A DNA stretch of 64,000 bases, taken from Escherichia coli (GTDB taxonomy: Bacteria > Pseudomonadota > Gammaproteobacteria > Enterobacterales > Enterobacteriaceae). A program made the position numbers and the translations under genes. Below the pieces are notes generated by a model. The model worked only from the letters and a program-made list of their open reading frames with translations, ran no database searches and was not told where the DNA came from. This document shows, one piece after another, positions 35,618 through 38,681 of this stretch. The DNA lies in the NCBI RefSeq assembly GCF_003334315.1, contig NZ_QOWR01000009.1; one strand, written 5' to 3'. Position 1 is the first letter of the stretch. Each line of letters begins with the position of its first letter.

Positions 35618-37054
35618 TCAGCGTTTGTAACCCCCGCCCAACGCACCAGTGAGTTGAATGGAGGCATCCAGCCACTGCCCTTGCAATAACAGGCCATTGG
35701 CCCGCTCACGCAGCGCGGGGATTCTGGCTTCGCTGACGCGGGAACCAGCAATGATGCCCGCGTTAAAGCGCGCCTGCGCAAGACCTACCACACGCAAGGC
35801 ATCGCGCTCAATTTGCGCCTGATGCTGGTTTTTCTCCGCCAGTGTCTGAACCTGACTGGCTGCCCGCGCCACGTCATTCACCGCTTCAACCACCGCTTTG
35901 TTGTAGCTGGCGATAGACAAGTTGCTTTCGGCTTTTGCGATATCGAGATTGGCGTTAAGACGACCACTATCGAAAATGGGTAGCGTCAGGCCTGCCGTAA
36001 CGCCCATTTGCTGCGCGGAATGACGGAACAGATCGCTTAAGTGCAACGCATCCTGTTGCAGGAAGGCCATCAGGTTGATGTCAGGATAAAATGCCGCTTT
36101 TGCCGCATCAATGGTGCTTAGCGATGACTCAACGTACCAGTGCGCCGCCTGCAAATCTGCCCGCCGGGCCAGTAAGGAGTACCCCAGTTCATCAGGAAGC
36201 TGGCTTGCCACTTTCGGCAACGCGACCGGTTTAAGCTTCAATGACTTTGTCTGGTTATTTGTAAGTGCGCTTAACCGTGCCTCAATAATTTTCATTTTCC
36301 CCGCGACATCGTTGAGCTGCTGCCGGGTTTTGCTGGCATTAATATCGGTTTCCACACCTTCAACTGAAGAAGTAATCCCGTTCTGATATAGCTGGCGATC
36401 GGTCGCGATAATGGTGTTCTGCTCTTTTTCTATTTGCTGCAAGACCGTGTTTAACGCCGCCTGGGTTTGCCACTCCCAGTACAGGCGGGCTACGCTGCCA
36501 GCCAGCAATTGGCGGGTTTGCTCGCGTTCCGCCGCCCGTGCTTTAACCGTACCCAGGCGGGCAGTAACCTCCGCCCGATTCTTTCCCCAGATATCGAGAT
36601 GCCAGCCCGCCGTTAAGCCAAAAGTACCGTTGGTGTACCACGGGCCGGTCGTACCTGCGGCCGGATCGTTCAGAGCAAACGGCCCCATTAAGCCTTCTGC
36701 CGACATTTTTTGCCGCTCCATATCCGCCGAAAAGTCGATCTGCGGACCATCCTGAGTGGCAACTGCCTTCGCCTGGGCTTCAGCTAGCTGAATGCGCTGT
36801 TCAGCCACCTGCATATCCGGTGCGTTCTGTAGTGCATTGTTAATTAAGGAAGTGAGTTGATTATCGTGATACTCCAGCCACCATTGGCTGTCTGGCCAAC
36901 CATTTTTCAGCGCCGTGGGTAATGCGGTGTCAACTTGTGCAGCGGGCGTTTGCTGGCTTAACGCCTGGCGGGTTTCATGCATAGGCGCACACCCGGCCAG
37001 CATCAGTAACAGCGGAAAACAGGCGATGGCTGGATAAAAGGAATCACGATTCAT
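35618..37054 (-). CDS. mdtQ: Outer-membrane efflux lipoprotein MdtQ (478 aa), intact
   Basis: ORF trimmed to MNRDSFYPAIACFPLLLMLAGCAP (lipobox). Confidence 0.8.
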   Translation of the reverse strand: MNRDSFYPAIACFPLLLMLAGCAPMHETRQALSQQTPAAQVDTALPTALKNGWPDSQWWLEYHDNQLTSLINNALQNAPDMQVAEQRIQLAEAQAKAVATQDGPQIDFSADMERQKMSAEGLMGPFALNDPAAGTTGPWYTNGTFGLTAGWHLDIWGKNRAEVTARLGTVKARAAEREQTRQLLAGSVARLYWEWQTQAALNTVLQQIEKEQNTIIATDRQLYQNGITSSVEGVETDINASKTRQQLNDVAGKMKIIEARLSALTNNQTKSLKLKPVALPKVASQLPDELGYSLLARRADLQAAHWYVESSLSTIDAAKAAFYPDINLMAFLQQDALHLSDLFRHSAQQMGVTAGLTLPIFDSGRLNANLDIAKAESNLSIASYNKAVVEAVNDVARAASQVQTLAEKNQHQAQIERDALRVVGLAQARFNAGIIAGSRVSEARIPALRERANGLLLQGQWLDASIQLTGALGGGYKR

Positions 37055-37277
37055 GGGGGAATAATCAGGTAAGAAAAGGTGCGCGGAGATTACCGTGTGT
37101 TGCGATATATTTTTTAGTTTCGCGTGGCAATACATCAGTGGCAATAAAACGACATATCCAGAAAAATATACACTAAGTGAATGATATCTTCCGATTTATC
37201 TTAATCGTTTATGGATAACGGCAAAGGGCTTCGTTTTTTCCTATACTTATTCAGCACTCACAAATAAAGGAACGCCA

Positions 37278-37361
37278 ATGAAAATTATACTCTGGGCTGT
37301 ATTGATTATTTTCCTGATTGGGCTACTGGTGGTGACTGGCGTATTTAAGATGATATTTTAA
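37278..37361 (+). CDS. yohP: Small membrane protein YohP (27 aa)
   Basis: RBS aaggaacgcc then ATG; MKIILWAVLIIFLIGLLVVTGVFKMIF; too short for ORF track. Confidence 0.55.
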   Translation: MKIILWAVLIIFLIGLLVVTGVFKMIF

Positions 37362-37446
37362 AATTAATTAATGTCATCAGGTCCGAAAATAACGAGAATA
37401 TTTCAGTCTCTCATCCTGTTGCGCTCCTGTCATGTGCATTGCTTCA

Positions 37447-37700
37447 TATAATCACTGGCGCAAGGAGCGCGCAGGGGGCGGCCAATCGCCGCCGCCCCCT
37501 GCACCCCCGGGCTCTGGCGAACAAAATCGCCGCTGCGCGGTGCCCTCGACTTATCCCTTACGGCTACCGGGTCGGGCGCGAGGTAACATCCCTGTAAAAC
37601 GCGCCCTCAGCCCACATCCATGTGGGCTGCCCCGGCCTTCAGGGAACGCCTCGGCAATTTTGACGCCACCAAACAACCGTGCGGCCTATTGATAAAGAGC
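37447..37700. other. GC-rich structured intergenic island with two perfect hairpins (possible boxC-like repeat or structured RNA)
   Basis: Inverted repeat gcagggggcggc-caatc-gccgccgccccctgc (37471-37502) and cagcccacat-cc-atgtgggctg (37608-37629) inside a strongly GC-rich stretch flanked by AT-rich DNA. Confidence 0.4.
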
Positions 37701-37733
37701 TAACACATTGTCAAAAAACATCACTATGGTTTT

Positions 37734-38681
37734 TTAGAGTTTCTCGATATCAATTGCCTGAATAGCCCTTGCAATATCAGGGGAATTATTCAACACCCGA
37801 ACATGCTGAAATAATTCCGTTGCTTCATCGTATTCTTTACGCAAATAACTCAACCACTGTTTAATCCGCGCAACGTGATATAACCCGGTATCGCCCTGCT
37901 TTTCCAGACGGGTATATTTTTGCAGCAAAGCAACCACCTCCGGCCACGGCATTCGCGGTTCGTTATATTTTACCACCCGGCTCAGGTTGGGAATATTGAG
38001 CGCCCCGCGACCAATCATCACTGCGTCGCAGCCGCTGATCGCCATGCATTGTTGCGCGCTCTGCCAGTCCCAGATTTCACCGTTGGCAATCACCGGAATA
38101 TTCAGCCGCTGGCGAATATCGCCAATCGCCTGCCAGTCAATATGCTCCGCGCGGTAACCCTGCTCTTTCGTCCGCCCATGCACCACCAGCTCCGTAGCAC
38201 CAGCCTGTTGAACCGCATCGGCGATTTCAAATTTCTTCTCACCGCTGTCCCAGCCCAGACGCACTTTCACGCTGACGGGCAAATGCGCCGGTACAGCTTC
38301 ACGCATCGCTTTTGCACCCTGGTAGATGAGTTCAGGATCTTTGAGTAACGTCGCCCCGCCGCCGCTACCGTTAACCGTTTTCGACGGGCAGCCGCAATTG
38401 AGATCCACGCCCCAGGAACCTAACTCCACCGCACGGGCGGCGTTCTCTGCCAGCCATTGTGGGAACTGACCTAACAACTGCACGCGCACCAGCGTACCAG
38501 ATGGTGTCCGGCTGGCGTTTTGTAGCTCAGGGCAAATGCGATGAAAGACTTTTACCGGCAGCAGTTGATCCACCACGCGGACAAACTCGGTGATGCACAG
38601 ATCGTAGTCGTTAACTTCGGTCAGCAATTCACGCACCAGAGAGTCAAGCACTCCCTCCATCGGTGCCAGTAACACACGCAT
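37734..38681 (-). CDS. dusC: tRNA-dihydrouridine synthase C (315 aa)
   Basis: ORF trimmed to [19 protein letters not shown]. Confidence 0.92.

Follow-up and report, generated by a model that had tools for sequence, protein, structure and literature searches.

A G+C-rich island in the spacer between the genes yohP and dusC, within a 64,000-nt stretch of the Escherichia coli contig NZ_QOWR01000009.1 (hereafter the window, to whose positions all coordinates refer unless another record is named), is almost certainly TRIP1c, the dusC-downstream copy of the K-12 intergenic repeat TRIP1. We propose, at roughly even confidence, that this copy is a structured RNA of the window minus strand that resembles TwoAYGGAY RNAs, would be transcribed and would dock CsrA. 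The identity of the repeat is already known and its function so far unexplained: TRIP1 was first described by Rudd in 1999 (Res Microbiol 150:653) and surveyed in 2024 by Li et al., who described its predicted RNA fold as stable and saw in it a substrate for recombination but proposed no further function (PMC10888264). What we add to the published description is the covariation, the strand, the relationship to TwoAYGGAY, the CsrA-like loops with the specific CsrA hypothesis that they suggest, and the copies in Klebsiella and Kluyvera.

The island stands out by composition, as the original prediction had said, with a G+C content in 100-nt windows of 0.60–0.73 across 37400-37700 against 0.32–0.40 on either side, and the RefSeq annotation places no coding sequence or other feature in the yohP-dusC spacer. 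The window is K-12-like, and over this region it is 100% identical to strain J53 and 99.7% identical to MG1655. Positions 1085-1465 of the MG1655 segment NC_000913.3 2228000-2234000 (L005) align with window 37380-37760 at 99.7% identity, and the published TRIP1c interval (2229122-2229394) therefore falls at window 37418-37690; the other two published intervals on NC_000913.3 are 915016-915281 for TRIP1a and 1080855-1081000 for TRIP1b (PMC10888264). Li et al. give TRIP1c a length of 273 bp, a position ~43 bp downstream of yohI/dusC, 94% identity to TRIP1a, a G+C content of 62–65% and a stable predicted RNA fold (PMC10888264), and in our alignments the window copy is 94.5% identical over 272 nt to the MG1655 copy in the lysO-aqpZ spacer, which is TRIP1a. 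The K-12 records carry TRIP1 at 3 places, the third of which, TRIP1b adjoining putP, was confirmed and has an internal deletion (profile positions ~70-191 are gone). Homology to other copies extends the conserved unit to about 37389-37694, broader than the 37447-37700 first delimited, and an nhmmer profile built from 22 copies matches window 37693-37395 with E = 1.6e-93. BLAST found TRIP1 in 5426/5426 complete E. coli genomes, at a median of 3 places per genome (range 1–10); the island is thus a named member of a known repeat family, an outcome that the original prediction had listed as refuting it.

The alignment used for structure prediction comprises 22 distinct copies from three genera in more than 300 columns and was folded with RNAalifold in the window-minus orientation. 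The resulting consensus comprises 74 pairs in 12 helices, with standard pairing in 98.7% of the alignment cells, and when the 3′ partners were slid by 1–3 columns as a control only 38–45% of cells could pair. Compensatory changes, in which both sides are altered, occur in 18 of the 74 pairs, and the observed values were reached by 0/500 shuffles. Such changes are found in every major helix, including both hairpins noticed at the outset; for example, an A-U pair of hairpin 1 has switched to G-C in 10 copies, and the arms of the G+C hairpin change across copies from GGCGGC/GCCGCC to GGAGGA/UCCUCC. In most pairwise comparisons there are fewer changes at paired than at unpaired sites.

The structure is built from three modules, namely a 166-nt multi-stem domain, a 12-bp G+C hairpin and a 3′ hairpin that pairs a Shine-Dalgarno (SD)-like sequence. 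The outer stem of the multi-stem domain (helices 1-2) has 17 pairs, 3 of them with compensatory changes and ~99% of cells paired, and helices 1-3 together have 22 pairs, 6 with compensatory changes; the final pair of helix 12, in the 3′ hairpin, is C-G, U-A or C.A depending on the copy. Hairpin 1 was located exactly in the original prediction, with perfect 10-nt arms (37608-37617 and 37620-37629) separated by 2 nt, which in an RNA would form 9 bp capped by a UGGA loop. The G+C hairpin had likewise been placed correctly at 37471-37502, but its description as a 12/15-bp repeat with a 5-nt loop gives way to 12-nt arms (37471-37482 and 37491-37502) that pair perfectly around an 8-nt loop; an alternative register of this inverted repeat has 9-nt arms matching at 89% with 5 nt between them, and when the window was shuffled 100 times the 12-bp palindrome pattern never matched. 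The features are collected in Table 1.

Table 1. Features of the TRIP1c unit and its neighbors in the window.
Feature	Coordinates	Strand	Basis and remarks
Whole TRIP1c unit	37389..37694	-	nhmmer profile and alignment row mapping
TwoAYGGAY-like multi-stem domain, 166 nt: outer stem round two GGA hairpins and a small hairpin	37507..37672	-	Rfam match, consensus structure
Outer closing stem, 5′ arm UUGGUGGCGUCAAAAUUG, partner 37507-37529	37655..37672	-	inverted repeat, covariation
Outer closing stem, 3′ arm	37507..37529	-	consensus structure, alignment
Hairpin 1, CAGCCCACA-UGGA-UGUGGGCUG	37608..37629	-	perfect inverted repeat; helix 7: 9 pairs, 3 compensatory
Hairpin 2, GGGCGCG..UUACAGGGAUGUUAC..CGCGCCC, loop UACAGGGAUGU, GGA invariant	37574..37606	-	helices 8-9
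Small hairpin inside domain, CCGC-GCA-GCGG	37530..37540	-	helix 10: G-C to A-U compensatory change in 9/22 copies
12-bp G+C hairpin, GCAGGGGGCGGC-GGCGAUUG-GCCGCCCCCUGC	37471..37502	-	helix 11: 12 pairs, 5 compensatory
3′ hairpin, GCGCUCCU (37463-37470) with SD-like AGGAGCGC (37421-37428), variable 34-nt loop	37421..37470	-	helix 12: 8 pairs
Direct repeats AATCGCCGC, at 37484 and 37525	37484..37543	.	repeat search
86-aa proline-rich open reading frame, not a gene	37432..37692	+	open reading frame list; ATG start
AUG AGA GAC UGA, candidate 3-codon remnant, 6 nt past SD-like stem	37403..37414	-	read from sequence
dusC (yohI)	37734..38681	-	annotation; stop codon ~40 nt upstream of TRIP1c unit, same strand
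yohP	37278..37361	+	annotation; convergent neighbor of dusC

Read on the minus strand, the paired columns contain 63 G-U cells (in 12 pairs) versus 9 A-C cells (in 5 pairs), an excess that favors an RNA of the dusC-sense strand over its complement or duplex DNA, although the count is somewhat biased in that the structure itself was derived on the minus strand. The whole unit is also more stable than all of its shuffles on either strand, with minimum free energies of -149.7 kcal/mol (z = -4.6) for the minus strand and -134.6 kcal/mol (z = -6.2) for the plus strand. From the covariation and the G-U excess, TRIP1 is probably under selection for an RNA-type fold read from the window minus strand, the sense strand of dusC. 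A structured non-coding RNA was one of three options raised at the outset and is the best supported of them, by covariation, strand asymmetry and the relationship to TwoAYGGAY, with its transcription a prediction.

The only notable Rfam match of the unit is RF01731 (TwoAYGGAY), a motif published by Weinberg et al. in 2010 (PMC2864571) and since then an orphan family. The match covers the full model (1-168) at window 37525-37662 on the minus strand, and it falls on the same strand in every copy. Other E. coli copies score 33.1 bits (the copy called TRIP1d) and 25.9 bits (O157 TRIP1c), and homologous Kluyvera copies reach 54.2 and 44.6 bits, over the family's gathering score of 43. As these Kluyvera copies are clearly homologous to TRIP1 (nhmmer E = 1e-78 to 1e-86), the central domain of TRIP1 appears by transitive homology to be a diverged branch of the TwoAYGGAY class. 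TRIP1 shares with TwoAYGGAY two adjacent hairpins within a long covarying outer stem, their terminal loops being similar to A-Y-GGA-Y, and the taxa reported for the motif include gamma-Proteobacteria and the human gut (PMC2864571); it differs in that two further hairpins, the G+C hairpin and one that sequesters the SD-like sequence, follow 3′ of the part covered by the Rfam model. The loop of hairpin 1 is AUGGAU in 22/22 copies, and that of hairpin 2 follows A(G/A/U)GGA(U/C), with AUGGAU solely in the Kluyvera copy L029. A second TwoAYGGAY-type subfamily, which we call B, was seen in Kluyvera (L026 4060-4280, plus strand; L029 9249-9431, minus strand), where its members score 49.2 and 37.2 Rfam bits. 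Subfamily B has little sequence identity to TRIP1 and nevertheless has a domain with two GGA loops and, after it, a G+C hairpin, so this architecture recurs; B is lacking from 5425/5426 E. coli genomes, the remaining one having a partial match.

While the stems covary, loop 1 CAUGGAUG and loop 2 CA.GGA.G are invariant in 22/22 copies. The two loop sites of the window copy, ACAUGGAUGU and ACAGGGAUGU, lie 28 nt apart and both within predicted loops (site 1, ACATGGATGT, at 37614-37623; site 2, ACAGGGATGT, at 37586-37595; both minus strand), and they account for the only two matches to the pattern ACANGGATGT in the whole window. The high-affinity consensus for CsrA from in vitro selection (SELEX) is RUACARGGAUGU, with the GGA in a hairpin loop; it is reportedly due to Dubey et al. 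in 2005. Judged from sequence, ACAUGGAUGU and UACAGGGAUGU fit this consensus, and CsrA may be the ligand of the two loops, an assignment that we make only tentatively. Gardner and Eldai had independently proposed, without experiments, that TwoAYGGAY is a CsrA-binding RNA (PMC4333381).

On this basis we suggest a model in which the element would act as an RNA module and would be neither a gene nor a DNA site bound by proteins. At the window locus the RNA would come from a 3′ extension of the dusC transcript, because no terminator-like site lies between the dusC stop codon and the unit. The two loops could then form a dual site bridged by one CsrA dimer, making the element a portable, self-folding CsrA-docking module by which the host transcript would be protected or marked at its 3′ end. 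A wider version, which we regard as speculative and rather unlikely, would treat TRIP1 and TwoAYGGAY as portable CsrA-docking cassettes with one high-affinity dual GGA site each, spread by other mobile systems, in Kluyvera by an IS50-type composite and in Klebsiella through amplification associated with REPs. If it were true, a transcribed cassette would tie its host transcript (in E. coli mostly from transporter genes) to Csr or enlarge the pool of CsrA decoys, and would join CsrB and CsrC as a third type of E. coli RNA that interacts with Csr, which would also provide a function for the orphan TwoAYGGAY. TRIP1 has been without a proposed function for 25 years and TwoAYGGAY an orphan since 2010; the link between them, the functional strand and the two invariant loops of CsrA-consensus type combine into one hypothesis that can be tested in K-12. 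Should CsrA bind, some intergenic repeats would be movable modules of post-transcriptional control, and should it fail to bind, TRIP1 would be an unusually well-conserved structured repeat.

A number of observations weigh against a CsrA-docking, TwoAYGGAY-like RNA. The window copy scores 29.7 bits with RF01731, which made TwoAYGGAY the top match in the Rfam scan that had been suggested for the island but lies below the gathering score, and by Rfam's own criterion this copy is not a TwoAYGGAY member; its hairpin 2 loop reads AGGGAU and not AYGGAY. Folding energy fails to tell the two strands apart, and the compensatory changes may stem from spreading master copies or gene conversion between copies and not have arisen in place. 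A consensus scan of 37200-37900 found no intrinsic terminator and no sigma-70-like promoter, and by eye only weak TAcAAa-like -10 candidates are visible upstream of the unit. In K-12, TRIP1a and TRIP1b are antisense to both of their flanking genes, and the orientation at yohP-dusC is itself polymorphic, so sense read-through cannot be general. The cross-linking (CLIP-seq) data for CsrA of Potts et al. 2017 contain no peak for dusC or ybjE, where reads from repeats were possibly discarded, and in Supplementary Data 2 of that study the half-life of dusC falls from 3.25 min in the wild type to 1.74 min in the csrA mutant, a drop (log2 = -0.90) that is flagged as not significant. More broadly, CsrA CLIP and omics tables, two Hfq RNA-RNA interactome (RIL-seq) supplements and one RNA 3′-end (Term-seq) supplement in the literature gave no signal for the yohP-dusC spacer. 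Finally, natural copies exist without individual modules (TRIP1b has lost both GGA hairpins, and the copies of strain XJ6.2, L025 and L034 carry deletions), and the element is therefore dispensable.

The main rival to CsrA docking is that TRIP1 is a selfish or relic repeat, an eroded non-autonomous mobile element whose K-12 copy is only a recombination substrate and whose conserved fold reflects the needs of spreading master copies or plain inheritance. We hold this to be unlikely but well within reach. Its appeal lies in the behavior of the copies, which number 1–10 per genome with polymorphic orientation at fixed loci, replace entire intergenic segments without cleanly interrupting them, tolerate internal deletions, and in the case of TRIP1a and TRIP1c have taken part in documented rearrangements (PMC10888264); moreover, the unit of Kluyvera genomosp. 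3 sits inside a 673-bp composite with IS50-like inverted ends and imperfect 9-bp flanking repeats, and units in Klebsiella lie between REPs and are tandemly duplicated. The proposal that the island is a remnant of inserted DNA stands to the extent that the repeat is dispersed over different loci in both orientations. However, inverted ends or target duplications are absent from the E. coli and Klebsiella copies examined, and searches of plasmid and phage records turned up no parent element with a transposase. A relic also does not lead one to expect the asymmetric, multi-branch, G-U-biased fold, which is not a terminal palindrome, nor loops that are invariant across three genera and whose motif recurs in subfamily B and in the Rfam consensus. 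At the yohP-dusC locus, comparison of O157 with E. whittamii further shows the unit to equal the coding sequence of dusC in conservation (92.3% versus 91.5% identity) and to surpass its own immediate flanks (79–84%).

Two other explanations take the structure seriously without invoking CsrA. The very stable fold between these convergent genes could, in the manner of REP/BIME or ERIC, be a barrier at the 3′ end that blocks 3′-to-5′ exonucleases or read-through and thereby sets the ends and stability of the yohP and dusC mRNAs on both strands, an explanation to which we give a small share of our confidence. No terminator-like site precedes the unit for either gene, the folding energies of both strands are far beyond those of shuffles, and most copies lie closely 3′ of stop codons, at 38–96 bp (PMC10888264), all of which a barrier would accommodate; yet a barrier needs neither invariant GGA loops nor this specific multi-branch topology, and a U-tract follows none of the hairpins. 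A DNA-level element, either a cruciform or a binding site for, e.g., nucleoid or recombination proteins, appears very improbable. TRIP1 is certainly G+C-rich and palindromic, cruciform potential was suggested by Li et al. and Rudd, and the repeat mediates large inversions (PMC10888264), but the asymmetry between G-U and A-C cells is unexpected for duplex DNA or a cruciform, and covarying pairs reach over long distances, as in the outer stem across ~150 nt.

Coding explanations fare worst. The 86-aa plus-strand open reading frame (ORF) has next to no chance of being a real gene: it does offer 86 open codons with an ATG, but indels of one base put the open frame into another register from copy to copy and yield unrelated peptides, it matches no NCBIfam family and is unannotated in RefSeq, long open frames are expected at 65% G+C, and it lies opposite the strand on which an RNA is supported. 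The initial view of this frame as a translation artefact thus holds. It is hardly more credible that the unit is a structured leader with a small-protein gene, in which the fold would regulate a short ORF opened by the SD-like stem and the following AUG. Many copies do have an AUG 4–10 nt past an SD-like AGGAG, and a 27-codon ORF, MMKLNKRFIVSDKLRFHYYRSLPISIA, is equally long in E. coli O157, ATCC 25922 and E69 and in E. whittamii; it belongs to the inverted O157-type TRIP1c allele (L008 847-930; also L009, L021 and L022) and starts 10 nt after AGGAG. Three Klebsiella copies likewise have 19–20-codon ORFs with a common NKRF/NNRF. Against this, the window copy has only 3 codons at a position where other copies have 9–27, TRIP1d copies lack the AUG, frames and lengths vary by copy with no clear third-position excess of substitutions, and the end of the 27-codon ORF overlaps the 3′ end of dusC on the other strand, an overlap that alone could conserve it.

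Among known systems, TRIP1 as described (Rudd 1999; PMC10888264) is the same element as the window copy, with no difference at the sequence level. The CsrA-docking RNA that we propose resembles CsrB and CsrC (and RsmX/Y/Z) in its GGA motifs, which sit in hairpin loops of CsrA-consensus type and whose spacing suits one dimer, but it offers 2 sites in loops, with GGA also in two stems, versus ~9–22 in CsrC and CsrB, is multi-copy and dispersed, has no recognizable promoter or terminator and no sequence homology to these RNAs, and its binding is predicted. With REP/BIME and ERIC (IRU) repeats it has in common that it is dispersed and G+C-rich, lies after stop codons or between convergent genes in either orientation, is potentially transcribed and serves as a recombination substrate. 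In contrast to TRIP1, with ~300 bp and few copies, REPs are imperfect palindromes of ~35–40 bp in hundreds of copies, and ERIC is a single long 127-bp hairpin, unlike the asymmetric multi-branch fold with invariant loops seen here. REP/BIME was rejected, as the original prediction had anticipated in calling the island no canonical REP: the motif of GCCGGATG...CATCCGGC type is not present in 37389-37694, and there is no match to a REP-derived Rfam family (naRNA4). Its suggestion of a boxC-like repeat has to be abandoned, since boxC is a ~50–56 bp unit with ~20–32 copies in K-12 (PMC2267715), compared with ~273–300 bp and 3 copies for TRIP1; this comparison covers unit size and copy number. The RSA repeat, which was considered too, is a 152-bp unit with ~6 copies in K-12. 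A group II intron fragment, a retron ncRNA, an IS200/IS605 omega-RNA, a PATE and an IS110 bridge RNA were also discarded, with neither Rfam support nor an associated gene for any of them, IS110 being present only as an insertion into the repeat.

When a single genome of each species was scanned with a pattern, matches were confined to Escherichia, Klebsiella and Kluyvera, plus one metagenome-assembled genome labelled only 'Proteobacteria bacterium' (L015), the flank of which matches the E. coli yohP-dusC spacer. Klebsiella chromosomes carry up to 13 TRIP1 places. Further E. coli sites are the lysO-aqpZ spacer and, in some strains, the sstT-alx spacer (TRIP1d). The recommended comparison of the yohP-dusC spacer with other E. 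coli showed the unit to be present, and in ~2100 genomes, including O157:H7 and ATCC 25922, an 88%-identical unit is inverted there and has different flanks; Li et al. had found both the 1a and the 1c loci occupied in both orientations (PMC10888264). A phage origin was rejected with 0 matches in 50,697 phage records, as was a plasmid-borne parent, all 'plasmid' matches being chromosome pieces or mislabelled chromosomes with lysO-aqpZ or yohP-dusC context. A clean empty site that would define the ends was sought as well, but at sstT-alx the whole segment is replaced among three alleles (spacers of 323, 398 and 615 bp) and the insertion junction is unreadable. MG1655 has at this spot (L007 ~2600-2760) another G+C-rich palindromic insert, ccctcgcccc...ggggagaggg..gggtgagggg...ccctcacccc, where other strains (L032, L033) have TRIP1d, and the spot appears to accept different repeats.

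Individual copies show how the unit is lost, amplified and invaded. In strain XJ6.2 (L010) precisely the 41 bp from one direct repeat AATCGCCGC to the other, equivalent to window 37484-37525, are missing and with them half of the G+C hairpin, a loss that looks like a slipped-strand deletion; L025 (Escherichia sp.) lacks hairpin 1, and L034 lacks profile positions 45-119. In K. pneumoniae strain 176 (L011), tandem units at 1046-1340 and 1483-1777 each have a REP (GCCGGGTGGCGG...CCTTACCCGGCC) ahead of them, and a REP is found immediately 5′ of several other Klebsiella copies too, which suggests REP-mediated amplification or mobilization in that genus. In Kluyvera genomosp. 3 (L029 9159-9831; L030 276-2346; L031 from 1004), a TRIP1-like unit stands head-to-head with a second TwoAYGGAY-type unit, and the pair, which spans 673 bp in L029, lies between IS50/Tn5-like inverted ends, CTGTCT(C/G)TTATACACAAAT ... 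TATAAGAGACAG, with 9-bp flanking repeats that match at 6/9 and 7/9 positions. From its sequence, the pair looks like a miniature inverted-repeat transposable element (MITE) with CTGTCTCTTATACACAAAT-like inverted ends, in which respect it differs from the window copy and the E. coli and Klebsiella copies examined: such ends and target duplications are seen at none of these, and a fuzzy search with the Kluyvera end sequence returned only L029, L030 and L031. Kluyvera genomosp. 3 CP022114.1 additionally carries a 1384-bp IS110-family element (NCBIfam NF033542, 'IS110 family RNA-guided transposase', 319.8 bits) at L030 722-2105 and L031 1521-2905. The insertion point is identical in these two different TRIP1-like copies, ACAGGGA^T...AT^GTTACC, and lies inside the GGA loop of hairpin 2; IS110 may target the sequence of this loop in the way that IS621 does with REPs, or else the composite already contained the insertion sequence when it moved.

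Two minor observations concern the surroundings of the unit in the window. A weak Rfam match to AgvB, an anti-GcvB small RNA, at 37384-37444 reaches 22.9 bits where the gathering score is 56; it lies on the opposite, plus strand across the 3′ tail of the unit and is most likely due to chance. Farther away, mdtQ (yohG; 35618-37054, minus strand) is annotated as a frameshifted pseudogene in the K-12 records and as intact in O157:H7 and ATCC 25922.

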